A stretch of 12,760 nt of DNA from Desulfuromonadales bacterium (GTDB lineage: Bacteria; Desulfobacterota; Desulfuromonadia; Desulfuromonadales; SZUA-540): assembly GCA_033549025.1 (NCBI GenBank), contig JAWSUS010000036.1:11096-23855 (forward strand), read 5' to 3'. The position numbers and the translations under genes are program-made. The notes below the pieces were generated by a model that saw only the letters and a list, made by a program, of their open reading frames with translations, ran no database searches and was not told the DNA's origin. The stretch's first letter is position 1. Each line of letters begins with the position of its first letter. This document shows positions 1 to 12,389 of this stretch, piece after piece.

Positions 1-26
1 GAGGAGAGCGAAGCGAACGGGCGTGA
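1..26. repeat. Family A palindromic element, right arm only (cut by window edge)
   Basis: GAGAGCGAAGCGAACGGGCGTGA at 4-26 is identical to the right-arm ends at 143-165 and 280-302. Confidence 0.9.
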
Positions 27-44
27 TACGGTCTTAAAGGCAAC

Positions 45-165
45 TCTCGCCCGCTCCTTGCAGTCGCTAGGGACACAGAGATCGCAGAGAAACCAGAGTC
101 TATTTTTTAGGTTTTGATCACTCTGTGGCCTCTGTGCCTCAAGAGAGCGAAGCGAACGGGCGTGA
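45..165. repeat. Family A palindromic element, copy A1
   Basis: Left arm TCTCGCCCGCTCCTTGCAGTCGCTAGGGACACAGAGATCGCAGAG; right arm CTCTGTGGCCTCTGTGCCTCAAGAGAGCGAAGCGAACGGGCGTGA (imperfect reverse complement); AT-rich loop. Confidence 0.92.
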
Positions 166-183
166 TACGGTCTTAAAGGCAAC

Positions 184-302
184 TCTCGCCCGCTCCTTGC
201 AGTCGCTAGGGACACAGAGAACGCAGAGAAACTAGAGTCTTTTTTTGGTTTTGATCACTCTGTGACCTCTGCGTCTCGAGAGAGCGAAGCGAACGGGCGT
301 GA
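184..302. repeat. Family A palindromic element, copy A2 (tandem with A1)
   Basis: Near-identical to 45-165. Tandem period 139 then 137 bp (GAGAGCG at 4, 143, 280). Identical 18-bp linker TACGGTCTTAAAGGCAAC at 27-44 and 166-183. Confidence 0.92.
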
Positions 303-321
303 TATGGTTTGGGGAGGGTGA

Positions 322-708
322 ATGGAGCTCAATGGACTTACGGCTAAGATCATCAAGGCCGCCATCGCAGTGCATCAGGAACTGGGGCCAGGTCTTTTGG
401 AATCGGTTTACCAAGCTTGTCTAGCTATCGCCCTCCGGCAAGAAGGTCTTGATGTCAGAACAGAAGTTTCTCTTCCTGTAATCTTTCGTGATAGCGTTAT
501 CCACGAACATGGGTTCCGTCTTGATCTGCTTATAGAAGATCAAATTGTGTTAGAGCTTAAGTCGGTTGACAAGGTCCAGCCTGTGCACATCAAGCAGCTA
601 CTCACTTATCTCCGGCTTGCTAAAAAGCCACCTGGTTTGCTGATTAACTTTAATGAGTCATTGGTTAAGAATGGTATCACCCGTGTAGCCAATGGCGTTG
701 ATATTTAA
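322..708 (+). CDS. GxxExxY protein 1 (PD-(D/E)XK nuclease-fold, PDDEXK_3-type), 128 aa
   Basis: VHQELGPGLLESVY (GxxExxY), RLDLL..IVLELK catalytic-like motif, QLLTYL, GLLINF; typical family length; GGGAGG RBS upstream. Confidence 0.93.
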   Translation: MELNGLTAKIIKAAIAVHQELGPGLLESVYQACLAIALRQEGLDVRTEVSLPVIFRDSVIHEHGFRLDLLIEDQIVLELKSVDKVQPVHIKQLLTYLRLAKKPPGLLINFNESLVKNGITRVANGVDI

Positions 709-728
709 ATCTTAAGAAAACACTTGAA

Positions 729-832
729 GAGACGTAGAGAAGGCAACGAAATCAAACCTGACTTTTCCTTTGGTTCGGATTTGATTTCTCTGTGATCTCT
801 GCGTCTCTAGTGAGCGATGCGAACGGGCGAGA
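729..832. repeat. Family A palindromic element, copy A3 (outer left arm missing)
   Basis: GAGACGTAGAGA (729-740) pairs with TCTCTGCGTCTC; inner GAAATCAAA/TTTGATTTC stem; ends GAGCGATGCGAACGGGCGAGA like the other A copies. Confidence 0.85.
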
Positions 833-834
833 TA

Positions 835-1896
835 ATGGATTTGAATTCAAAGATTTTTGTTGCTGGGCACAAAGGCCTAGTTGGATCGGCGATTGTGCGG
901 CAGCTTCAGGGTGCCGGTTACACCAACCTGATCCTGCGCTCCCATGGGGAGTTGGATTTAACTGACCAGCAGGCCGTGGCGACTTTCTTTGCCAACGAGC
1001 GGCCGGAGTATGTCTTTCTGGCGGCGGCGAAGGTGGGGGGGATTGTGGCCAACAACACCTACCGGGCCGACTTTATCTATGAGAATCTCACGATTCAGAA
1101 CAACGTCATTCATCAGAGTTATGTGCAGGGGGTGAAAAAACTGCTGTTTCTGGGCAGCACCTGTATCTATCCGCGGGAATGCCCACAGCCGATGCGGGAA
1201 GAGTACCTGCTGACGAGTCCCCTGGAATATACCAACGAACCCTACGCTGTGGCCAAGATCGCTGGCATGAAGCTGTGCGAGAGCTATAATCTGCAGTATG
1301 GCACCAACTTTATCAGTGTGATGCCGACCAACCTCTATGGCCCCGGTGACAATTTCGACCTGGAAAAGTCCCATGTGCTGCCGGCGCTAGTGCGCAAGAT
1401 GCATTTGGCTCGATTGCTAGAAGCTGGTGACAGGGGCGCCGTGCTGGCCGATCTGGGCGTGGATGACGAGGTTGCTGCCCAGGCGATTCTGGGGCGCTTC
1501 GGCGTGAGCGGCGAGCAGGTGGAGATCTGGGGGAGCGGGCGGCCGCGCCGGGAATTTCTCTGGAGTGAAGATATGGCATCCGCCTGTGTGTATCTCATGG
1601 AGAATCGTGACTTCAAGGATACCTATGAGGCCGGGGCGAAAGAGATTCGTAACACCCACATCAATATCGGCACGGGCACGGACATCAGTATTGCCGAATT
1701 GGCTGAACTGGTGCGGCAGGTGGTTGGCTTCGGCGGCAGGCTGGCTTTTGACTCGACTAAGCCGGACGGCACCCTCCGCAAACTGACGGATGTGTGCAAG
1801 CTGCATGCGCTGGGTTGGAAGCATCAGGTGGAGCTGAAGGAAGGTGTGCGGCGGCTGTACGAATGGTATCTCAGCCATGCCGAGGCACGGCGCTGA
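835..1896 (+). CDS. fcl: GDP-L-fucose synthase (long variant)
   Basis: [23 protein letters not shown]-binding start, [21 protein letters not shown] catalytic Yxxx[23 protein letters not shown]. Start set at 835 because the ATG at 817 lies inside repeat A3. Confidence 0.95.
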
Positions 1897-1911
1897 TTTT
1901 TAAAAAACATT

Positions 1912-2029
1912 TCACGCCCGCTCCTTGCAATCGCTAGAGCCACAGAGAACGCAGAGAAACCAAAATTCTTTTCGGTTATGAATTCTCTGTGATCTCTGTG
2001 TCTCGAGTGAGCGAAACGAACGGGCGCGA
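1912..2029. repeat. Family A palindromic element, copy A4 (solo, between fcl and manC)
   Basis: TCACGCCCGCTCCTTGCAATCGCTAGAGCCACAGAGAACGCAGAG ... CTCTGTGATCTCTGTGTCTCGAGTGAGCGAAACGAACGGGCGCGA; flanking ACAT/ATGT extends pairing to about 1907-2034. Confidence 0.92.
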
Positions 2030-2058
2030 GATGTCTTGGATTTAATAGGAGTGCTCAA

Positions 2059-3606
2059 ATGATCGTCCCTGTCATTCTCTCCGGCGGTGCCGGTACCCGC
2101 CTGTGGCCCTTGTCCCGTGAACTCTATCCCAAGCAGCTGCTACCCCTGGTCTCGGCGCGCACCATGCTGCAGGAGACGGTCGAGCGCTTAAATGGCCTGC
2201 CAGAACTCAGTCCGGCCATGGTGATCTGTAACGAGAACCACCGCTTCATGGTGGCCGAGCAGATGCGTCAGTCGAGTGTGCCGACGGGTGCCATCGTGCT
2301 GGAGCCGGTGGGGCGCAACACAGCGCCGGCCATCGCGGCAGCGGCTCTGCTGGCCCAAGCCAAAGGCGACGATCCGGTACTGCTGGTGCTGCCGGCCGAT
2401 CACGTAATTGCCGAGGCGGCGGTGTTGCGCCAGGCTATCAAGGCGGGTGCCGCGCTGGCTGAGCAGGGTAGGATGGTGACCTTCGGCATTGTGCCGGACA
2501 AGGCGGAGACGGGGTATGGCTACATTCGAGCGGGTGAACCGCTCGAATGTAGCCGTCCTTTGTCCTTTGTCACTTGTCCTTTGTCTAAAACCAATGACCC
2601 AAAACCAATGACGAATGACGCCGCGCAGCGGCTGACCAATGACCCGGAAGCGCTAGCTGCCGTTGCGCAGCGGCTGACCAATGACACCACTGCCTTTGCA
2701 GTGGCCGCTTTCGTCGAAAAACCCGATCTGGCCACTGCCGAAGAATACCTTGCCTCGGGCGACTACTACTGGAACAGCGGCATGTTCCTGTTCAAGGCCT
2801 CGCGCTATTTGGAAGAGCTGGAAAAATTCGCGCCCAGCATGCTGGCAGCCTGCCGGTTGGCTGTGGAGCAGGGGCAGAAGGATCTCGATTTTCTGCGCCT
2901 GGATGCCGAGGCGTTTGCTGCCTGTCCGGCGGACTCCATCGACTATGCCGTGATGGAGAAGACGGACGCGGCGGCGGTGATTCCCCTGGACGCCGGCTGG
3001 AATGATGTCGGGTCGTGGTCGGCCCTGTGGGAGGTCGGCGCACACGACCCAGCGGGGAATATCCTCAAAGGGGATGTGCTGGCCGAGGACGTGAAAAATT
3101 CCTATATCCATGCCTCGCAGCGCCTGGTCGCCGCCGTCGGTGTGGAAGACCATGTCATTGTCGAGACGGCCGATGCCGTGCTGGTCGCCCCCAAGGATCG
3201 CGTGCAGGATGTCAAGCACATCGTGGAACGACTGAAGGCGCAGAATCGCGCCGAGGCCCTGCTGCATCGGCGGGTGAACCGCCCCTGGGGAGCCTACGAG
3301 TGCATTGATCAGGCGGAGCGCTATCAGGTCAAGCACATAACCGTCCACCCCGGCGCCACCCTCTCACTGCAGATGCACCACCACCGCGCCGAGCACTGGA
3401 TCGTTGTGCGCGGGACCGCCAAAGTCACCAAGGGGGAAGAGGTCATCCTGCTGTCGGAAAACCAGTCGACCTACATCCCCCTGGGCGTCACCCACCGCCT
3501 CGAAAACGTCGGCAAAATCCCTCTGGAAATGATCGAAGTGCAGTCGGGCAGTTATCTGGGGGAGGATGATATTGTGCGGTTTGATGACGAGTATGGGCGG
3601 GGGTAA
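2059..3606 (+). CDS. manC: Mannose-1-phosphate guanylyltransferase / mannose-6-phosphate isomerase with an in-frame repeat insertion
   Basis: [55 protein letters not shown]-terminal cupin ([27 protein letters not shown]); AGGAG RBS. Confidence 0.96.
2518..2554. repeat. Perfect 16-bp inverted repeat inside manC
   Basis: GGCTACATTCGAGCGG (2518-2533), loop GTGAA, CCGCTCGAATGTAGCC (2539-2554). Confidence 0.95.
2555..2685. repeat. Heptamer-repeat element inserted in frame in manC
   Basis: GTCCTTT GTCCTTT GTCACTT GTCCTTT (2555-2582), then oppositely oriented CAATGAC CCAAAAC CAATGAC GAATGAC (2592-2619); 21-bp direct repeat GCGCAGCGGCTGACCAATGAC at 2623-2643 and 2665-2685. Confidence 0.88.
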
Positions 3607-3610
3607 GCGG

Positions 3611-3780
3611 TTAACCGCGGAGTACGCTGAGGGCGCGGAGAACTGCTTTTTTAGGGTAAAGGCAATAATCCTTGGCTTTCCCCCCCCGATCTCCACGATT
3701 GGCTTTGGAGTCCTGAACTCAAAGATTTTGTAAATAGGCCTGGAGATTTTCTCCGATCACTCCGCGATCTCCGCGGTAAA
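3611..3780. repeat. Family B palindromic element, copy B1
   Basis: 32-bp terminal inverted repeats, 3611-3642 TTAACCGCGGAGTACGCTGAGGGCGCGGAGAA and 3749-3780 TTCTCCGATCACTCCGCGATCTCCGCGGTAAA (25/32 complementary by hand count). Confidence 0.93.
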
Positions 3781-3789
3781 TAGGTCTTT

Positions 3790-4191
3790 ATGAATAATGA
3801 GATGAAATTTTCTGATGCTTTGAGCCCTATAACCGAGGTTGTTATCGGCTCGGCCATAAGGGTGCATCGGGAACTGGGGCCTGGCTTGCTTGAATCCGCC
3901 TACGAAGCCTGCCTGGCCTATGAGTTGACCGAAGCCGGCTTTCTGGTTGAACGTCAAAAGCCTCTGCCTGTGACGTACAAGGGAGTACAGCTTGACTGTG
4001 GTTACCGGCTTGATCTTGTCGTTGAGAACCGAATCATTCTCGAATTGAAAGCTGTCGATAAGCTGAGTCCGCTTCACGAAGCACAACTCCTTTCGTACCT
4101 TAAACTCTCCGGAATCAGTCTGGGCTATCTCATGAATTTTCACACCGACCTGATGAAGAATGGCATTCGGAGGATCGTAAATAATTATTAA
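3790..4191 (+). CDS. GxxExxY protein 2 (PD-(D/E)XK nuclease-fold), 133 aa (alternative start 3802)
   Basis: VHRELGPGLLESAY, GYRLDLVVENRIILELK, HEAQLLSYLKL, GYLMNF, KNGIRRI. Confidence 0.93.
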   Translation: MNNEMKFSDALSPITEVVIGSAIRVHRELGPGLLESAYEACLAYELTEAGFLVERQKPLPVTYKGVQLDCGYRLDLVVENRIILELKAVDKLSPLHEAQLLSYLKLSGISLGYLMNFHTDLMKNGIRRIVNNY

Positions 4192-4366
4192 CCGCGGAGT
4201 ACGCGGAGTGCGCTGAAGGCGCGGAGAACTGCTTTTTTTAGGGTAAAGGCAATAAACCCTTGGCTTTCTTCACGATCTCTACGATTGGCTTTGGAGTTCT
4301 GAACTCAAAAATTTTGTAAATAGATCTGGAGATTTTCTCCGCTCACTCCGTGACCTCCGCGGTAAA
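4188..4366. repeat. Family B palindromic element, copy B2 (direct repeat of B1)
   Basis: Aligns with 3611-3780 over its full length, roughly 90% identical by eye, with one extra 9-bp unit in the left arm; its TTAA start contains the TAA stop of GxxExxY protein 2. Confidence 0.93.
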
Positions 4367-4378
4367 GAGGAACTTAAA

Positions 4379-5722
4379 ATGAAGTGCTTCAAAGCCTACG
4401 ATATCCGTGGCCGGCTCCCCGATGAGTTGAATGACGACATCGCCTACCGCATCGGCCGGGCCTATGCCGAATTTCTTCGCCCGGGGCAGGTGGTGGTCGG
4501 TCGGGATGTGCGCTTGTCAAGTGAGGCCCTTTGTGAGGCTCTGAGCCGGGGGCTGACCGATGGGGGAGCGGATGTGTATGACATCGGGTTGTGCGGGACG
4601 GAGGAGATTTATCACGCCACCTTCGCCGCCGGTATGGATGGCGGCATTATGGTGACGGCGAGCCACAATCCTCTGGACTACAACGGCATGAAACTGGTGC
4701 GCGAGGGCAGTCGGCCGATCAGTGGCGATTCCGGGTTGCTGGAGATCCGGCGTTTGGCCGAGGAAGGGCGCTTTTCTGAGGCGGACAAGGGACAGGTGCA
4801 CCCGCTGGATATGAAGGCACAATACATTCGCCATTTGCTGGGCTATGTCGATGTATCCTCCCTCCAGCCCTTGAAAATCGTGGTCAACGCCGGCAACGGC
4901 TGTGCCGGGCCCGTCATGGATTTGCTCGAGAAGGAACTTCCTTTTGAGCTGATTAAAGTCCATCACCAGCCTGATGGCCATTTCCCTAACGGCATTCCTA
5001 ATCCGCTGTTGCCGGAGAACCGGGCCGCCACCTCGGAGGCCGTGCTTGAGCACGGTGCTGCTGTAGGTATTGCCTGGGACGGCGATTTCGATCGCTGCTT
5101 TTTCTTTGACGAGAATGGCCGTTTCATCGAGGGCTATTACATTGTCGGCTTGCTGGCCGAAGCGCTTCTTGTACGCCATCCCGGCGCGAAGATCATCCAC
5201 GATCCGCGCCTGACCTGGAACACCATCGACATGGTGAAGAGGGCAGGGGGGATACCAGTGCTGAGCAAGACCGGCCATGCGTTTATCAAGGAACGCATGC
5301 GGGCCGAGGATGCCATATACGGCGGCGAGATGAGCGCCCACCACTATTTTCGCGATTTCGCCTATTGCGACAGCGGCATGATCCCCTGGCTGCTGGTGCT
5401 TGAGCTGATGAGCCGATCCGGCCAGCCCCTGTCCGCCTTGGTGGATGAGCGCATGGGCCTTTACCCGGCCAGTGGCGAAATCAACCGGCGACTGGCTGAC
5501 CCGGCGGCGGTGCTGGCCCGGATCGAAGCCCGTTACCGGGCAGAGGCCTTGGCGGTGGACCATACCGACGGCCTCTCCCTGGAGTTTGCCGACTGGCGCT
5601 TCAATCTTCGCAGCTCCAACACCGAGCCGGTGGTGCGCCTGAATGTTGAATCCCGTGGGGATGAAAGATTGATGCAGGAGAAAACCCGGGAAATTCTCCT
5701 GGAAATGGACCGTGAAAATTAA
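4379..5722 (+). CDS. manB: Phosphomannomutase (CpsG/ManB type)
   Basis: [15 protein letters not shown] phosphoserine loop, AWDGDFDR metal-binding loop, GEMSAH, RSSNTEP; GAGG RBS right after repeat B2. Confidence 0.96.
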
Positions 5723-5736
5723 GCGAAAATAATGTC

Positions 5737-5765
5737 AAACTCAGGGATTTCCTGATGTTTTTTTT
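5737..5765 (+). terminator. Possible intrinsic terminator after manB
   Basis: AAAC-TCAGG-GATTT-CCTGA-T-GTTT short stem followed by a T8 run (5758-5765). The stem is weak. Confidence 0.45.
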
Positions 5766-5851
5766 CTGATCGATTCACTATATTCCCCACGCAGGTCCAA
5801 CCGAAGACGTCCTGTATACAGAGCCGTAACCCGTTCTTCCTCGATTAAGTC

Positions 5852-7522
5852 ATGGAAACTATTCTGATTACCTGTTTTTACGTGGGCATCACCGCCATGT
5901 TCGCTTCTCTGATCATGGTCCCTGTTTTGCGACGCTGGGCCCTGGAAAAAGGTCAGGTGGATGAGCCGGACCAGCGGAAGGTGCACACGGTGGCCATTCC
6001 CCGCATCGGCGGCATTGCCATCTTCATGTCGTTTCTCTTCTCCCACCTTGTATATGTGGATATCGACCCGCAGGTCAGGGGTGTGCTCGCCGGGGGCGTC
6101 GTCATTTTTTTCACCGGCCTGATCGACGATTTGCACGGCCTGACGCCCCGTCGCAAGTTTTTCGGCGAAATCGCCGGGGTGGCCATTGCCATTGCCATAA
6201 GCGATCTCTATATCCACCAGCTCGGCGATCTCTTCGGCTTCGGCAACATCGTCCTGCCAGCCTGGGTGGGCATTCCTTTTACGGTTTTTGCCCTCGTCGG
6301 CGTGATCAATGCCATCAATCTGATCGATGGGCTCGATGGACTGGCCGGCGGGATTTCCGCTATTGCCTTGGTCGTGTTCAGTGTCCTGGCCTACCGTGAC
6401 GGCAATGTGTCAGCCCTGCTTATCTGCTCAAGCATGCTTGGGGCTCTGCTCGGTTTTCTTAAATTCAACTTTTACCCGGCCCGTATTTTCATGGGCGATG
6501 CCGGCAGTTTGACGCTGGGATTCGTGCTGGCCTTCATGGCCGTTTTTATCACGCAGGGCGAATCTTCCACGACCTCTCCTGTCGTTCCAGCCCTCGTGCT
6601 GGGGCTGCCTATCCTTGACACCTTATGGGTGATGGGGCGGCGCCTGCTCCTGCGGCAGAGTCCCTTCTCGCCGGACAAAACCCACCTGCACCACAAATTC
6701 CTCAGCCTGGGACTCGACCACCGTTTTACGGTGCTGCTTATTTACGGCATCAGCCTCTTCTGGGCAACCGTAGCCATGATTTTCTCCCATGGCCACGCTG
6801 GTCTGCTGCTGGCCTGCTATCTGCTGACCACCTTGGTGCGCTACGGCATCCTCCGCTATATCCTGAGACACCCCGACCGCTTTGCTTTCCTGAAGAGAGA
6901 TTCCTCCGTCAGTTGGCGGAAATCACAAATTTTTCTGAGGATCGCCACGGTGGTAGACGGTCTGATGCCGGTCATGCTGATCACTCTGGTGTCATACCTG
7001 GGTATGGTGGCGGTCTGGGGAGGGGGAGGGGCGGCCCATTTGTGGCAGATCACCGGAATCCTGTTTCTGGGGATGTCCATTCTTCTCTACGTCACCGGGG
7101 ACTCGAACAACTATTTTTTTCTGGCTTCGCTCTATATCGTTGGTCTGGTCACCATTTTTGTGGCGGATTCCAGTGCGGACCAGGTCGTTCTTTGGGGCAT
7201 GCAGGTGGGCGAAATCACCTGGGTGGCCTTTATCCTGCTGGGCTGCATGGTCTTCATGAAGGTCATTTTCCGCTTTGAAGGGGAATTCTTCATCTCAACG
7301 CCCGACATGCTTATCCTCGGGATTAGCATATTCTTTGGCTTTTACAGCTTTCACTACAGCCAGCATGCCCTGGTTTCACCCGTTTTTTTAAAGGGCACCA
7401 TTTTTCTACTCGCCATTAAGGCCATCGGCTTCAAAAAAAAGCGGCGGAACCGTATCGCCGTCTACAGTTGCCTGGCGGTTCTTCTCGTTATCACCCTTAA
7501 GGGCTGGCTGGTGCCTCTGTAA
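5852..7522 (+). CDS. Undecaprenyl-phosphate N-acetylhexosamine-1-phosphate transferase (WecA/TagO/MraY family) with extra C-terminal membrane region
   Basis: DEPDQRKVH..IPRIGG, GLIDD, NAINLIDGLDGLAGG, FNFYPARIFMGDAGS, PDKTHLHH; about 200 additional hydrophobic residues at the C-terminus. Confidence 0.88.
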   Translation: METILITCFYVGITAMFASLIMVPVLRRWALEKGQVDEPDQRKVHTVAIPRIGGIAIFMSFLFSHLVYVDIDPQVRGVLAGGVVIFFTGLIDDLHGLTPRRKFFGEIAGVAIAIAISDLYIHQLGDLFGFGNIVLPAWVGIPFTVFALVGVINAINLIDGLDGLAGGISAIALVVFSVLAYRDGNVSALLICSSMLGALLGFLKFNFYPARIFMGDAGSLTLGFVLAFMAVFITQGESSTTSPVVPALVLGLPILDTLWVMGRRLLLRQSPFSPDKTHLHHKFLSLGLDHRFTVLLIYGISLFWATVAMIFSHGHAGLLLACYLLTTLVRYGILRYILRHPDRFAFLKRDSSVSWRKSQIFLRIATVVDGLMPVMLITLVSYLGMVAVWGGGGAAHLWQITGILFLGMSILLYVTGDSNNYFFLASLYIVGLVTIFVADSSADQVVLWGMQVGEITWVAFILLGCMVFMKVIFRFEGEFFISTPDMLILGISIFFGFYSFHYSQHALVSPVFLKGTIFLLAIKAIGFKKKRRNRIAVYSCLAVLLVITLKGWLVPL

Positions 7523-7625
7523 GTCCGGCCCTTTTTGTCCCTCCCTCCTTATTTTGCCCTCCTGCCCATTTTTCTCCCGAATGGGTATCTTCCGCCATGA
7601 ATCCCCGAGACATTTGGCCAAGCCG

Positions 7626-7634
7626 TGGTATATT
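7626..7634 (+). promoter_or_regulatory. Possible extended -10 promoter element for the cytochrome operon
   Basis: TGG-TATATT matches TGn-TATAAT, 77 bp upstream of the ATG at 7711; no convincing -35. Confidence 0.3.
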
Positions 7635-7710
7635 TTAACCCTTTAGGGCCTGACATGCCCTGACGGGCGGCAACGCCTTGAACCCCATTTTCCTCATCCG
7701 GAGCATCTCT

Positions 7711-9504
7711 ATGAATTATCCCGTCTGGTATCTGCCGGAGATCGGCGGAGGGGCGCTGATCGCGCTGATCGCGGTTGTTCATGTTTTTGTGTCCCACTTC
7801 GCGGTCGGCGGCGGGCTCTATCTGGTTCTGGCCGAGCGCAAGGGCATCCGGGCCAACGATCAGGGCATTCTCGACTTCACCCGCAAGCACACCAAGTTTT
7901 TTCTGCTGGTGACCATGGTGTTCGGCGGCCTGACCGGGGTGGCCATCTGGTTTATCATCTCCCTGGTGCAGCCTGCCGGTACCTCTTTTCTCATTCACAC
8001 CTTCGTCTTCGGCTGGGCGACGGAATGGGTCTTTTTTCTGGTGGAGATCGTCGCGCTCTTCATCTACTTCTACACCTTCGGGCGCATGGATCACCGGAAC
8101 CATCAGATTATCGGCTGGATCTATTTTATCGCGGCCTGGGTGAGCCTGTTCATTATCAACGGCATCATCGACTTCATGCTCACCCCGGGCGGCTGGCTGC
8201 AGAACGGCAGCTTCTGGGCGGGCTTTTTCAATCCGACCTTCTGGCCCTCCCTGTTTTTCCGCACCTTTGTCGCCCTGATGATGGCCGGCTCCTACGCTTT
8301 CGTGACCACGGCCTTTGTCAAGGACGCCTCCCTCAAGCGCACCATGACGGTTTTTTCGGGCAAATGGGTGCTCGGCGCGCTGCTGGCGGCTCTGCCCAGC
8401 GGGCTCTGGTATGTGGCTGTGCTGCCGCAACCGGCCATGGCCCTGGTGAAGGGCTCGTCGCCGACCATTGCGCGGGCCCTCTCCTGGGGGACCTGGGCTG
8501 TCGTCGGCATCCTGATCGTCAGCCTGCTTCTCACCCTGACCAAACCGGCCCGGCACAACATCATCTATGCCACCGTCGTCATGGTCTGCGCCTTTCTGTT
8601 TATGGGGTCGTTCGAATGGACGCGGGAGGGAGCGAGAAGACCTTATGTCATCAACGAAGTCATGTATTCCAACGGGATTTTCAAGCAGGATGTGGAACGC
8701 CTGAACGCCGAAGGTTTTCTGCAAAACGCCAAATGGGTGCGTATCCAGGAATTTCACGAGGAGAGTCTGCTTGAAATCGGCCAGGACCTGTTCAAGAACC
8801 AGTGCTATGCCTGCCACACCATCGGCGGCTTTAACAACGATATTGTGCCCCGCACGGCCACTATGAGCTTTCCGGTCCTGGTCAGTTACCTGGAAACCAT
8901 CCACGACCGGCGTTATTTCATGCCTCCTGTGGCGGGTTCTCCGTCTGAGCTGAGGGCTTTGGCGACCTATATTTACAGCGGCCTGCAGGGCAAGCCGGTG
9001 GAGGAGACTGTCCTGCCGACCACCGAAGCCGGCCAAATGAGCCCCGGCGAACAGCTGTTCAACGACAATTGCGTTTTCTGCCACGAGGCGGCATTGATCA
9101 AGACCAAGACGGCCGACTGGTCGCGCGAACGGATTCGCCAGGGGATGGACAACCTGAGCGGACTCAATCCGGCCATGCCTGATTTTTATGGTTCGGATGA
9201 GGAAAAAGAGCAGTTGAGCGACTTCATCCTGGCCCTGAACGCGCCCGCATCCCAGGTCGTCGGGGCCCAGCATCATCCGGGCGAAACGGTCTTCGAGACG
9301 CACTGCTCCATGTGCCACAGCCTGCGGGCGGACTACAACCCGCTGCTGCCGAAAATCGACGGTTGGGAGCGCAGCCGTCTGCGTCAGGCCCTAGACCGGC
9401 TTGATTCCCTCAACCCGGCCATGCCGCCGCTCCAGGCGAGCGACGAGGAGAAAGACGCCCTGGCCGACTACCTTATGGAAGAATCCCGGGAGGTCCAGCG
9501 ATGA
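7711..9504 (+). CDS. Cytochrome bd subunit I (CydA)-like membrane protein fused to three class I cytochrome c domains
   Basis: GGAG RBS at 7700-7703; multi-TM N-terminal part with HVFVSHFAVGGG and FEWTREGARRPYVI (like the CydA ExGRQPW motif); CYACH 8803-8817, CVFCH 9070-9084, CSMCH 9304-9318, each followed by an MP motif as candidate distal Met ligand. Confidence 0.82.
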   Translation: MNYPVWYLPEIGGGALIALIAVVHVFVSHFAVGGGLYLVLAERKGIRANDQGILDFTRKHTKFFLLVTMVFGGLTGVAIWFIISLVQPAGTSFLIHTFVFGWATEWVFFLVEIVALFIYFYTFGRMDHRNHQIIGWIYFIAAWVSLFIINGIIDFMLTPGGWLQNGSFWAGFFNPTFWPSLFFRTFVALMMAGSYAFVTTAFVKDASLKRTMTVFSGKWVLGALLAALPSGLWYVAVLPQPAMALVKGSSPTIARALSWGTWAVVGILIVSLLLTLTKPARHNIIYATVVMVCAFLFMGSFEWTREGARRPYVINEVMYSNGIFKQDVERLNAEGFLQNAKWVRIQEFHEESLLEIGQDLFKNQCYACHTIGGFNNDIVPRTATMSFPVLVSYLETIHDRRYFMPPVAGSPSELRALATYIYSGLQGKPVEETVLPTTEAGQMSPGEQLFNDNCVFCHEAALIKTKTADWSRERIRQGMDNLSGLNPAMPDFYGSDEEKEQLSDFILALNAPASQVVGAQHHPGETVFETHCSMCHSLRADYNPLLPKIDGWERSRLRQALDRLDSLNPAMPPLQASDEEKDALADYLMEESREVQR

Positions 9505-10553
9505 GCCCACTTATACCCACACCCGATACGCTGCCGGTGGCCTGGGGCTGGTTTCAGTTTCTTCTCCTGCTGACTCTGCCTTTTCACCTGCTGGCCATGA
9601 ACGCCATGGTGGGCTCGGCCGGTCTCGCCCTCTATGCCCGTTTTCGGCCCGATGAACCCTCCCGCCGACTGGCCCATGAGCTGGCCAAGGTTCTGCCCTT
9701 TCTGGTCGCTTTTACGGTGAACTTCGGGGTTGCGCCTCTGCTGTTCAACCAGGTGCTGTACGGGCATTTTCTTTACGTCAGCTCCATTCTGATGGCGGTC
9801 TTCTGGCTGGCGGTTATCCCCCTGCTTATTCTGGCCTATTACGCCCTCTATCTCTATGACTTCCGCTTCAACGCCCTGGGCAAGGCGGGGACGATATTCC
9901 TGGCGATGTCCCTGCTTATCTTTTTTATCATTGCCTTTATCTATACCAACAACATGACCCTGATGCTGCTGCCGTCCGAGTGGGTGGCCTATTTTCAGAA
10001 TGACGGCGGCACGCTTCTGAACCTCAGCGACCCGACCTTACTGCCGCGCTACCTGCATTTTATGATCGGCGCCCTGGCCGTGGGGGGACTCTTTGTCGCG
10101 CTCTTCGGCAAATGGCGCGAAAAAGGGGATGCCGCCATGGCCGCGACCGCCGTGCGCCTGGGAATGTCGACCTTTACCTGGCTGACTCTGGTGCAGATCC
10201 TGGTCGGGCTGTGGTTTCTGGTCGCCCTGCCCAAAAAGGTGATGCTCATTTTCATGGGCGGCGATATGCTGGCGACGGTCATCTTTTTGGTCGCCCTTAT
10301 CCTGGCTTTGGCGGTGCTGGTGACGGGGCTGAAGAAAAAGGTCTATCTTACCGCCGGCCTCGCCATCACCCTGGTGGTCCTGATGTCCTTTATGCGCGCC
10401 TATGTGCGCATGGGGTTCCACGAACCCTATTTTTCCGTGCGGTCGCTGCTCGTCGTGCCGCAGTATTCGCCCATGTGGGTGTTCTTTCTGTCTCTGGTTG
10501 CCGGCCTGCTCTGTATAGGCTGGATGATCAAAAAGGTGGTCGAGATTCGATGA
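9501..10553 (+). CDS. Polytopic membrane protein, probable second (CydA-like) subunit of the upstream complex
   Basis: ATGA overlap with upstream stop; about 9 hydrophobic segments; His in helix 1 (LPFHLL) and PRYLHF resemble CydA heme-ligand positions. Confidence 0.7.
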   Translation: MSPLIPTPDTLPVAWGWFQFLLLLTLPFHLLAMNAMVGSAGLALYARFRPDEPSRRLAHELAKVLPFLVAFTVNFGVAPLLFNQVLYGHFLYVSSILMAVFWLAVIPLLILAYYALYLYDFRFNALGKAGTIFLAMSLLIFFIIAFIYTNNMTLMLLPSEWVAYFQNDGGTLLNLSDPTLLPRYLHFMIGALAVGGLFVALFGKWREKGDAAMAATAVRLGMSTFTWLTLVQILVGLWFLVALPKKVMLIFMGGDMLATVIFLVALILALAVLVTGLKKKVYLTAGLAITLVVLMSFMRAYVRMGFHEPYFSVRSLLVVPQYSPMWVFFLSLVAGLLCIGWMIKKVVEIR

Positions 10554-11377
10554 AGGCTGGCACCCATACCCCATGGCAGGTGGCTTTCGCCCGGCTGGGT
10601 CGCGGAATTCCGCTGATGATTCTGGTCTGCTTGATGTGGGGGCAGTTTTCGGTCGCAAGAAGCGAGGCTTTTCGGGTCATTCAGCTTCAGCATCGCTTCG
10701 CCGCAGATATCCTGCCCTTGGTGGCCCCTTTGCTTGAAGAGGGCGAAAAAGCGACGGGGAGCGATTCGGTGCTGGTTCTGCGCGCCTCCACGGGCCGACT
10801 CGCCGAGCTCACCGACCTGATCACCGCTCTGGATAGGCCCCGGAAAACCTTGAAGATTAGTCTTCGGCAGACGAGGGCAGGGCAGACGGGCGATCTTAGC
10901 GCCGGGTTTTACCGGGTCGGGCCGGATCAATTTCAGGCGGAAGGCCAGCGAACCTTGGGGAACCGGCAACAGACCACCGAGTCGTTTCTGCGGGTTCTTG
11001 AAGGGGAAACCGGCCTGTTGATCCTGGGGCGGGAAGTCCCTTTTACGACGGCCATGACGGTGTTTTCCGGGAGGCATCGCGGGTTTTCCCGGACGGTTGA
11101 ATACAAATCGGTGACGACGGGCTTCTGGGTGCGCCCGCAAGTGCTGGGGAATAAAATATCCCTGGAAGTGGCCCCCCACATGATGGCCCAGGGGCAGCAG
11201 GGTGAAGAGACCCTGGAGTTTCAACAGCTCAAAACGACGCTTGAGTTGTCTCCCGGCCAATGGGTGGATCTGGGGCAGCAACTGCAGCAGGCGGACGAGG
11301 TCAGTTTGTCCATTGTGCGGCTGCAGACGGGGCTTACCCAGGGCGAGGGGCGTGTCTGGATTCGTGTGGATGAGTAA
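10550..11377 (+). CDS. Small secretin-like exported protein (NolW/secretin N-domain plus short beta-rich secretin-like domain), 275 aa
   Basis: ATGA overlap at 10550; signal-like LMILVCLMWGQFSVARS; VIQLQHRFAADILPLV..LITALDRP N-domain pattern; LRVLEGETGLLILGREVP, TGFWVRP, LKTTLELSPGQWV secretin-type strands. Confidence 0.65.
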   Translation: MKAGTHTPWQVAFARLGRGIPLMILVCLMWGQFSVARSEAFRVIQLQHRFAADILPLVAPLLEEGEKATGSDSVLVLRASTGRLAELTDLITALDRPRKTLKISLRQTRAGQTGDLSAGFYRVGPDQFQAEGQRTLGNRQQTTESFLRVLEGETGLLILGREVPFTTAMTVFSGRHRGFSRTVEYKSVTTGFWVRPQVLGNKISLEVAPHMMAQGQQGEETLEFQQLKTTLELSPGQWVDLGQQLQQADEVSLSIVRLQTGLTQGEGRVWIRVDE

Positions 11378-11396
11378 TTAAACAGGGAGGTTGTAC

Positions 11397-11696
11397 ATGG
11401 CTGTTGTGGAAGTGAGTATTACGCCATTGGGAACCGCGACGCCCAGTGTTTCGGCCTTTGTGGTCGGCTGTCTCGAGGTGATCCGCAGCTCGGGGCTCAC
11501 CTATCAGTTGACCCCGATGGGGACCGTTATCGAGGGCGACCTGGACGATATTCTGGCCGTCATTCGCCAGATGCACGAAAGTCCCTTTGAGTCCGGCGCC
11601 GTGCGGGTATCGACCTCGATCAAGATCGACGACCGGCGGGATCTGCCCCGTCATACCATGGCGGGCAAAGTGCGCTCGGTGGAGGATAAACTGTAA
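11397..11696 (+). CDS. MTH1187/YkoF-like thiamine-binding family protein
   Basis: MAVVEVSITPLGT, YQLTPMGTVIEG, RVSTSIKIDDRRD; GGGAGG RBS at 11385-11390. Confidence 0.9.
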   Translation: MAVVEVSITPLGTATPSVSAFVVGCLEVIRSSGLTYQLTPMGTVIEGDLDDILAVIRQMHESPFESGAVRVSTSIKIDDRRDLPRHTMAGKVRSVEDKL

Positions 11697-12389
11697 ATGC
11701 TTAAAGCCGTGATCTTCGACTTCGACGGGGTTATCGTCGATACGGAACCCCTGCACCACCGGGCCTTCATGGACGTTCTGGCCCCCTTCGGCATTTCCTG
11801 CAGCTGGCCGGAGTATCGCGAACACTATATGGGCTTCGATGATCGGGATGGCTTTCGCGCTTTTTTTGAGCGGACCGGCAAAACGCTGGCAGATAGCGAC
11901 CTGCACCAGCTGATCGCCCAAAAAGCCGCCGCCTTTGGGCGGATTGCCGCCCGGGGCGTCACGCCGTACCCCGGTGTCGTCGAGCTCATCAAATCCCTGG
12001 CCGCCAGGCTGCCTGTCGCCCTGTGCAGCGGGGCCCTGCGCAGCGATATCGAGCCGATCCTCAGCGGCCTTGGCATTGCCCCTCGTTTTTCCGCGCTGGT
12101 GACGGCGGACGATGTACAGCACAGCAAGCCCGATCCCGAAAGCTACCGGCTTACGGTCTCACGCCTCAAACAGAAGGGACTGCTTGAGGATTTCTCCCCC
12201 GAGGGTATTCTTGTTATAGAAGATACGCCGGCCGGCATCGATTCAGCCCGCGGTGCCGGCCTGTCTGTCCTGGCCGTATCGAACAGCTATCCGCAATCTT
12301 TTCTTGAATCATTGCAGGTGCCGGTCGTTTCATCCCTGGCGGGTTTGACCGACCGGGACCTGGTGTCTTTGGTCAGCCAACCACTCTGA
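11697..12389 (+). CDS. HAD-superfamily phosphatase (subfamily IA, beta-PGM/CbbY-like)
   Basis: IFDFDGVIVDTE motif I, CSG motif II, KPDPE motif III, VIEDTPAGI motif IV; directly abuts the upstream stop. Confidence 0.92.
   Translation: MLKAVIFDFDGVIVDTEPLHHRAFMDVLAPFGISCSWPEYREHYMGFDDRDGFRAFFERTGKTLADSDLHQLIAQKAAAFGRIAARGVTPYPGVVELIKSLAARLPVALCSGALRSDIEPILSGLGIAPRFSALVTADDVQHSKPDPESYRLTVSRLKQKGLLEDFSPEGILVIEDTPAGIDSARGAGLSVLAVSNSYPQSFLESLQVPVVSSLAGLTDRDLVSLVSQPL

Follow-up and report, generated by a model that had tools for sequence, protein, structure and literature searches.

The closest described parallel to the locus analysed here is the partnership between REP doublets forming hairpins (REPINs; REP, repetitive extragenic palindromic) and REP-associated tyrosine transposases (RAYTs). 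As described in the accessible part of the source, the enzyme gene is flanked by its cognate palindromes and co-evolves with them, gene-less doublet hairpins with a variable spacer lie between genes, turnover is slow and the system is rare on plasmids and phages (10.1101/2021.07.10.451892, PMC8266576). Other orphan prokaryotic repeats have been described, and the accessible portions of those reports associate them with no GxxExxY gene (PMC3733652, PMC4679880). The GxxExxY proteins belong to PF13366, which the available part of one survey lists as of function unknown with multiple transfers (PMC3424549). Here, we analyse a stretch of 12,760 nucleotides from a Desulfuromonadales bacterium (the window: contig JAWSUS010000036.1 of assembly GCA_033549025.1, positions 11,096 to 23,855), in which two GxxExxY genes each lie between palindromes, an arrangement that a preliminary description had read as a REP/RAYT-like system. 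The partnership between nuclease and repeat is real, widespread and apparently unpublished; no literature link between the GxxExxY family and flanking repeats was found, most subscription journals and supplements lying beyond the coverage of the search.

Genes and their probable cognate repeats

The two genes lie on the forward strand at 322-708 (gene 1, 128 residues, with a ribosome site GGGGAGG at 311-317) and 3790-4191 (gene 2, 133 residues). Both match TIGR04256 (136.9 and 153.1 bits, cut-off 35), and their sole Pfam match is PF13366 (PDDEXK_3; scores of 133.6 and 149, cut-off 22). The proteins are 50% identical, as a hand alignment had suggested. Gene 1 is preceded by the tandem hairpins A1 (45-163) and A2 (184-300) and followed by A3 (728-832), and gene 2 lies between B1 (3611-3780) and B2 (4188-4366), the left end of B2 overlapping the gene 2 stop codon. 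Folding z-scores are -4.05, -3.97 and -5.70 for A1, A2 and A3 and -2.9 and -4.9 for B1 and B2, with 0 of 200 shuffles equalling the fold in each case; A4 (1910-2030), a gene-less solo copy elsewhere in the same operon that the preliminary description did not list, reaches -8.7. Coordinates, profile scores and folding bear out the placement of each gene between palindromes.

The two repeat families had been described as different apart from a shared subunit, and in overall identity they do differ: A1 and A2 are 92% identical and B1 and B2 87%, whereas A and B are only 33-41% alike. Both, however, are variants of one design, with a purine-rich left arm, a variable loop and a complementary right arm, each arm holding two or three 7-bp units of the form C-R-C-N-R-A-X at 8-10 nt spacing. 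The arms are tandem arrays of non-palindromic 7-mers and not stem-loops of the REP type. Inverted arms of CRCAGAG units build A1, the arms of B1 consist of CGCGGAG/CGCTGAG units, and the left arm of A3 is degenerate. Family A additionally carries two different extra 19-nt inserts, each in place of one base of an outer unit (about 51-69 and 141-159 in A1, about 190-208 and 278-296 in A2, about 808-826 in the right arm of A3, 1918-1936 and 2005-2023 in A4). One 19-nt insert is also found on a hairpin of a different type upstream on the contig of the window, and one occurs in 15 of 302 loci; because the arms that carry it differ in unit type, it may be a tiny element in its own right with these repeats as its target. 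Similar repeats, or such inserts, may be described in a 2008 paper on very small mobile cyanobacterial repeats.

BLAST and pattern scans, to which decayed sites may be invisible, located about 15 hairpin sites, solo or flanking, in the source genome (G000). A strict hairpin scan returned five in the real genome and none in two triplet-shuffled genomes. Solo hairpins lie on contigs C1, C4, C9, C16, C36 (the contig of the window) and C37, and, together with A4, they represent gene-less extragenic doublets with a variable spacer. Hairpins can also be nested: at one locus (L060) three 9-mer hairpin types lie in one another's loops, and at another (L290) a short G+C-rich palindrome sits inside an A hairpin. 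Directly upstream of the window, an N gap (G000:C36:11002-11095) splits the family A tandem and cuts a further family A hairpin, whose right-arm remnant occupies 1-26. The copies flanking the gap are 95-99% alike, and the tandem may in part result from overlapping assembly. Since two more A copies lie beyond the gap, one of them 99% like A1, the tandem count is uncertain, probably three and up to five.

The same layout is found well beyond the window. Of 227 full-length genes gathered, 14 were dropped for short or gapped flanks, leaving 213, and a fresh set of 89 was assembled in which seven hits lacking the anchor motif were skipped. With an inverted-repeat score of at least 24 between gene flanks as the threshold, a repeat spans 173 of the 213 genes and 72 of the 89, compared with 35 of 2213 control genes from G000; when direct repeats are also counted, the figures become 194/213, 79/89 and 71/2213. 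Palindromes are thus enriched beside GxxExxY genes, as the preliminary description anticipated. The nearest arms read left-gene-right in 95 of 163 typed loci and right-gene-left, as in the window, in 17. The basic unit is a gene inside one inverted repeat, and a gene between two whole hairpins is a minority arrangement. Arms begin a median of 11 nt past the upstream stop codon. Matches to TIGR04256 are present in 32 of the 41 near genomes, in 19 of 61 genomes across the phylum and, for two other phyla, in 18 of 41 and 25 of 41. A single genome has up to 11 matches, many of the matches being fragments, and G000 has three genes. For the cross-phylum sets, two clade-specific patterns gave about 600 hits, of which the best 80 were taken, and distant clades are in consequence under-represented. 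Plasmids seldom carry the family (8 of 72,556 records), and no member was found in 50,697 phage records; three distinct GxxExxY loci turned up in viral contigs across three scans. Among sequencing runs, none of RNA was listed as a carrier, and four DNA runs with a small share yielded nothing but fragments from other organisms and were set aside.

Repeat type follows the protein. In what follows, protein positions are in gene 2 numbering unless given for gene 1, and clades are named by residue 33 (Leu33 or Phe33). Placed on the protein tree, the last unit base, X, changes 7 times, compared with 55 when labels are shuffled. Counting only arms downstream of the stop codon, X is G in 118 of 122 Leu33-clade genes and a base other than G in 85 of 88 Phe33-clade genes. 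Arms of the G type are found in all 17 named phyla that have a typed locus, archaea included, and 12 of the 13 genomes carrying both clades are fully concordant in repeat type; host composition is therefore not the explanation. The pairing of protein clade and repeat type that had been proposed extends to single residues. In the fresh set, again with downstream arms only, Thr15 is accompanied by G at unit position 5 in 26 of 28 genes and other residues by A in 22 of 30 (pooled, 109/114 and 51/88). Asn12 is accompanied by A at unit position 4 in 56 of 67 genes. These links were found in the first 213 genes and held in the 89 new ones, and they are kept when typing uses arms outside the coding region, although codons 15-16 resemble a unit. 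Non-overlapping clade contrasts over all branches run 19:0 and 18:3, the top of 48 positions scanned. Within the window, position 4 is A in each of the 14 units of family A (CRCAGAG; gene 1 with Asn/Thr) and in none of the 10 of family B, whose gene 2 carries Ser12 and Thr15. Asn4 and Thr7 of gene 1, which correspond to positions 12 and 15, are candidate base-reading residues. The comparative evidence argues strongly for recognition between each protein and its own repeat, and we infer that the protein probably binds the arrays directly.

The enzyme also looks active, judging from conserved catalytic residues, purifying selection and a structure model. Among the 213 genes, D75 is kept in 213, E85 in 212, K87 in 213 and Q99 in 211, and with Y103 included each of the five is kept in 205-213. 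All are intact in gene 2, together with E35, and so are the gene 1 residues E27, D68, E78, K80, Q92 and Y96. Ratios of dN/dS are 0.02-0.13 in eight of nine computable pairs and 0.47 in the closest pair, two further pairs being saturated. The model (pLDDT 92) has a core PD-(D/E)XK fold with the D...ExK residues intact, and residues 12 and 15 sit in its first turns of helix 1. Structural matches are at middling Z, about 8, and the best are PD-(D/E)XK nucleases: Cas4 SSO0001 (Z 8.2, rmsd 4.2, 100 residues aligned) and the BpuSI nuclease domain (Z 8.2, rmsd 3.1, 95 aligned). A sequence search for the solved structure of a relative found none. The third GxxExxY gene of G000 (L002:3783-4199, on C37) is apparently decaying: E35 and Y103 are replaced and there is no upstream arm, and a T-type hairpin downstream matches its Phe33/Thr15 type. 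Three GxxExxY matches (L373 and one each in the genomes G173 and G177) are seen in open frames of 883-1062 codons, possibly fusions to large proteins. Membership of a known defence system was set aside; PADLOC returned only weak hits, those to Cas4 profiles having E-values of 0.0035-0.044.

Evidence for changes of site and a possible mechanism

There is good evidence from the compared flanks that the cassette changes site. Eleven gene pairs are at least 78% identical; six share flanks (one of these being a tandem pair in one locus), and five, all about 80% identical, lie in unrelated flanks. In four of these five, the homologous stretch is bounded on one side by the outer end of the left arm and on the other, approximately, by that of the right arm, and the fifth shares about 70 nt more upstream. 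Examples of such arm-to-arm homology are L192/L194/L210 and, within one genome, L331/L369. Sites vary widely, and some junctions have been reused by different GxxExxY clades. At 36 sampled loci, the 47 neighbours identified by Pfam are varied housekeeping genes (trp, leu, urease, flagellar, oxidoreductase and transport operons), 43 of them co-oriented; none of the 47 is a transposase, integrase or reverse transcriptase, and no cas genes were seen among the identified neighbours of scanned loci.

Empty junctions of the kind that had been called for do exist. The junctions that we recognise from their sequences as Tex-PHP and rfbA-rfbC are filled in G001 or G002, two genomes of the same genus, and empty in G000. 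The manC-manB junction, which holds gene 2 in the window, is at most 35 nt long in 9 of 23 distinct junctions of relatives; other relatives have there an intact GxxExxY gene of another sub-clade (G004), a decayed one (G024), nested solo hairpins (two relatives) or four-helix-bundle cassettes (three). At one junction (G000:C1:147195-147356), G001 has a GxxExxY cassette (L075), G002 a frameshifted copy (L103) and G000 a hairpin of a heptamer class, which is taken up below; upstream of rfbA the swap is reversed, with a 9-mer hairpin in G000 and a heptamer hairpin in G002. No target-site duplication was detected in 64 simple elements (direct-repeat score of 4.95 for own pairs and 4.62 for crossed ones), and old insertions may have lost a short one.

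The arms themselves hold clues to mechanism. Linker lengths of left and right arms agree in 93% of cases within an element and in 52% across elements of the same type, and linker sequences agree at 40% and 19%, respectively. Perfect mirrors of 39-45 nt extend into flanking bases, and G001 has one loop in the opposite orientation to that in G000 and G002. Mismatches between arms, read on the sense strand, are G.T in 67 and A.C in 79 instances among 72 solo hairpins, and 80 and 79 among 95 gene-spanning pairs; this balance gives no indication that an RNA stem has been selected for. We read the homogenised arms, the mirrors, the inverted loop and the balanced mismatches as signs of protein-binding DNA arrays with nick-initiated copying or recombination between arms.

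Within the sequences compared, the layout, the site consensus, the covariation of site and protein, the conserved catalytic residues and the arm-to-arm boundaries are established. On this footing we think it probable that the unit is a minimal mobile cassette, whose protein would bind its own arrays through helix 1 and nick near the outer ends, the cassette then being reinserted with the assistance of the host. The unit would consist of a gene for a PD-(D/E)XK-fold protein of about 125 residues between inverted arrays of two or three 7-bp sites. The start of the first helix would contact these arrays on double-stranded DNA, several protein copies occupying each arm, and the two arms might be brought together or might pair when single-stranded. 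A nick would probably fall near the outer array ends, and nicking with repair could copy one arm from the other, yielding homogenised arms, flipped loops and tandem hairpins. Occasionally, the unit might be inserted elsewhere by host repair without target duplication, a movement open to cassettes and gene-less hairpins alike. Copies would persist chiefly in the gap that separates a stop codon from the next ribosome site in co-transcribed genes; there they would do little harm and would be transcribed by the host. Movement would be slow, with vertical inheritance and decay afterwards. Solo hairpins are best read as derivatives of cassettes. We would go further only tentatively, to a class of mobile DNA, shared by bacteria and archaea, whose sole enzyme is a 125-residue Cas4/RecB-like nuclease that reads bases through its helix (residues 12 and 15 and the clade-defining loop), cuts its own ends, moves itself and generates the dispersed 9-mer hairpins seen in many genomes.

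Several observations weigh against this proposal. Near-identical copies at different sites were not found among the 11 pairs at least 78% identical. The tex-PHP cassette is also present in G027 and G010, in the same protein clade; because different families have some cassettes in common, a number of the empty sites may reflect loss. Solo hairpins are common to G000, G001 and G002 across 6-10% DNA divergence (the solo A hairpins of these genomes were not found at those junctions in G003), and G000 retains hairpin types whose cognate gene it lacks. The shared solo hairpins, the possible losses and the lack of near-identical copies at new sites speak against fast movement. As for the residue-base code, strict independent-pair tests on well-supported branches, which are underpowered, reach significance for neither residue (4.9 versus 0.2 over 9 pairs and median p 0.06 for residue 15; p 0.6-1 for residue 12). 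Unit position 5 is G in 37 of 88 non-Thr15 genes and position 4 is A in 40 of 94 non-Asn12 genes, and the code is one-sided because the usual base is retained in many such genes. Both residues, moreover, occupy sites typical of helix capping. Finally, we know of no strand-joining chemistry for a lone PD-(D/E)XK nuclease, and six Y1_Tnp matches in G000 could act in trans.

This last point raises the question of whether cassettes and hairpins alike travel as passengers of a HUH Y1 transposase/RAYT or a host recombinase that acts in trans, with the GxxExxY protein only binding or trimming ends. A missing target duplication is compatible with HUH-type insertion, and the six matches offer a candidate enzyme. 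None of the six genes, however, has such arms within 700 nt (three are at or near contig ends, with one flank short), and the arms track the GxxExxY sequence, whose catalytic residues are invariant; we regard mobilisation in trans as improbable. A domesticated host factor is a somewhat better candidate, if still an unlikely one. Such a protein would bind cognate arrays for self-regulation, or to mark or process cruciforms or stalled forks at the hairpins, and the cassettes with their hairpins would disperse passively through recombination and the horizontal transfer of operons. The strong purifying selection, the long vertical persistence of cassettes and solo hairpins, the rarity on plasmids and absence from the phage records, and the flanks shared by six of the 11 closest pairs would all suit it. 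It fits poorly with the patchy presence (19/61, 18/41 and 25/41 genomes), with as many as 11 matches, many fragmentary, in one genome, and with the unrelated neighbours, the arm-to-arm boundaries and the mixing of phyla on the protein tree.

The position of the arms shortly after an upstream stop codon and the co-orientation of 43 of 47 neighbours would also be in keeping with an RNA stem around the gene that either RNase III or the GxxExxY protein excises or processes, comparable to a ribosomal RNA (rRNA) intervening sequence or a type III toxin-antitoxin RNA. All the hairpins fold well as RNA, and rRNA intervening sequences are excised by RNase III, according to the accessible text of one report (PMC4990558). 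Against this stand the equal frequency of G.T and A.C mismatches on the sense strand, the occurrence of family A in both orientations relative to transcription, and the Rfam results (no gathering-score match in 10 loci, and only a chance-level match in the window), which together make an RNA element hardly likely. Self-directed movement of a nuclease cassette is the reading that we retain.

The host operon and its neighbourhood

Both GxxExxY genes interrupt a sugar-nucleotide operon, the order of which is an upstream gene that we take from its sequence to be gmd-like, an epimerase gene (fcl-like), manC and manB. The epimerase gene (835-1896, forward strand) is of the NAD-dependent epimerase family, and its presumed identity as fcl comes from the preliminary description and from gene order. 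Hairpin A4 separates it from manC, the mannose-1-phosphate guanylyltransferase/isomerase gene (2059-3606, forward), and the phosphomannomutase gene manB (4379-5722, forward) follows B2. The two cassette genes are more AT-rich than their hosts, as had been noted, with G+C contents of 0.46 and 0.48 against 0.57-0.62 for fcl, manC and manB. Downstream genes (5852-12389) are unrelated to the cassettes and include a glycosyltransferase family 4 gene, along with what we take by eye to be a membrane cytochrome c pair, a secretin-like protein, a small protein and a HAD hydrolase. The claim that the window holds no transposase or integrase stands for the six open reading frames profile-scanned at 322-7522, those past 7522 having been outside the family-library scan. 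The polysaccharide cluster also contains, some 7 kb before the start of the window, an open reading frame (L001:2811-4091, on C36) that by its appearance is presumably an IS5-type transposase.

The manC gene itself contains an in-frame insert of about 46 codons (2518-2690), which belongs to a repeat class distinct from A and B: a perfect 16-bp inverted duplication of host sequence is followed by inverted heptamer arrays. In three relatives, a short inverted copy of the manC 3' end with heptamer arms precedes four-helix-bundle genes at manC-manB. These genes, which match TIGR02436 and lie between heptamer arms (L036, L037 and L043, in G007, G019 and G022), form cassettes of a parallel class that uses the same slots as gene 2 here. 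No TIGR02436 match was found in G000, although heptamer hairpins are kept there.

Implications and relation to known systems

If each protein reads its own arrays, an orphan family present in 32 of 41 near relatives and in at least 17 phyla, archaea included, would gain a predicted substrate that can be read beside each gene, and exchange of two named residues should retarget the protein. Two enzyme-repeat pairs of natural origin, with sites that differ by a single base, are available in the window. The family may also provide an origin for intergenic palindromes that have no known mobilising enzyme. Were mobility to prove true, it would represent transposition-like movement in which no DDE, HUH, serine or tyrosine recombinase takes part. 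On the tentative wider reading, the family would amount to a naturally occurring collection of tiny sequence-specific nucleases, the target of each being spelled out next to its gene.

Like an insertion sequence with a DDE transposase, in which the gene lies between terminal inverted repeats that hold several binding sites, the GxxExxY cassette has homology that ends at the outer arm ends, gene-less derivatives and decayed copies. It differs in having no DDE transposase inside or among the 47 neighbours, no detected target-site duplication, a protein of only 125 residues, and no near-identical multi-copy expansions among the copies found. Its gene-less hairpins recall miniature inverted-repeat transposable elements, as the accessible part of one source defines them (10.1101/2021.07.10.451892). 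In fold, the nearest solved structures are the Cas4/RecB-family nucleases (SSO0001, Pcal_0546, AddA, lambda exonuclease), with which the D...ExK and QxxxY motifs are held in common. The QxxxY motif is one that we take to be assigned to the RecB family. Unlike Cas4, GxxExxY proteins lack conserved Fe-S cysteines, are much smaller, and have no cas neighbours in the scanned loci.

Nucleases of the PD-(D/E)XK fold serve selfish elements elsewhere, as free-standing or intron homing endonucleases and as TnsA of Tn7. The target of a homing enzyme is one fixed site in the empty allele, and TnsA needs TnsB. In GxxExxY cassettes, by contrast, the sequence that covaries with the protein is the element's own ends, sites vary, and no recurring partner gene lies beside the nuclease. 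The 23S rRNA intervening sequences that carry an open reading frame, and the TIGR02436 cassettes, likewise place a small gene inside an inverted repeat, as far as the available text describes them (PMC4990558); protein fold and repeat period are different, and GxxExxY arms show no sign of RNA-stem selection.

The REPIN-RAYT system comes closest. Both combine an enzyme gene and cognate, co-evolving palindromes, both leave gene-less doublet hairpins of variable spacer between genes, and both are of slow turnover and rare on plasmids and phages. The proposal of a REP/RAYT-like architecture is upheld as to cognate pairing and gene-less doublets, and fails as to copy number, site and repeat structure. 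RAYTs, in the accessible accounts, are HUH Y1 enzymes (TnpA-REP), single-copy, at a conserved site and inherited vertically, and REP arms are stem-loops that typically number hundreds per genome. GxxExxY enzymes have the PD-(D/E)XK fold, are multi-copy at many sites, give a tree that mixes phyla and occur in archaea, and G000 has 7-bp site arrays at the few sites counted above. We therefore reject membership of the REPIN-RAYT family for want of a HUH enzyme and on account of the multi-copy, site-changing gene and its presence in archaea, while recognising that the two systems work alike.

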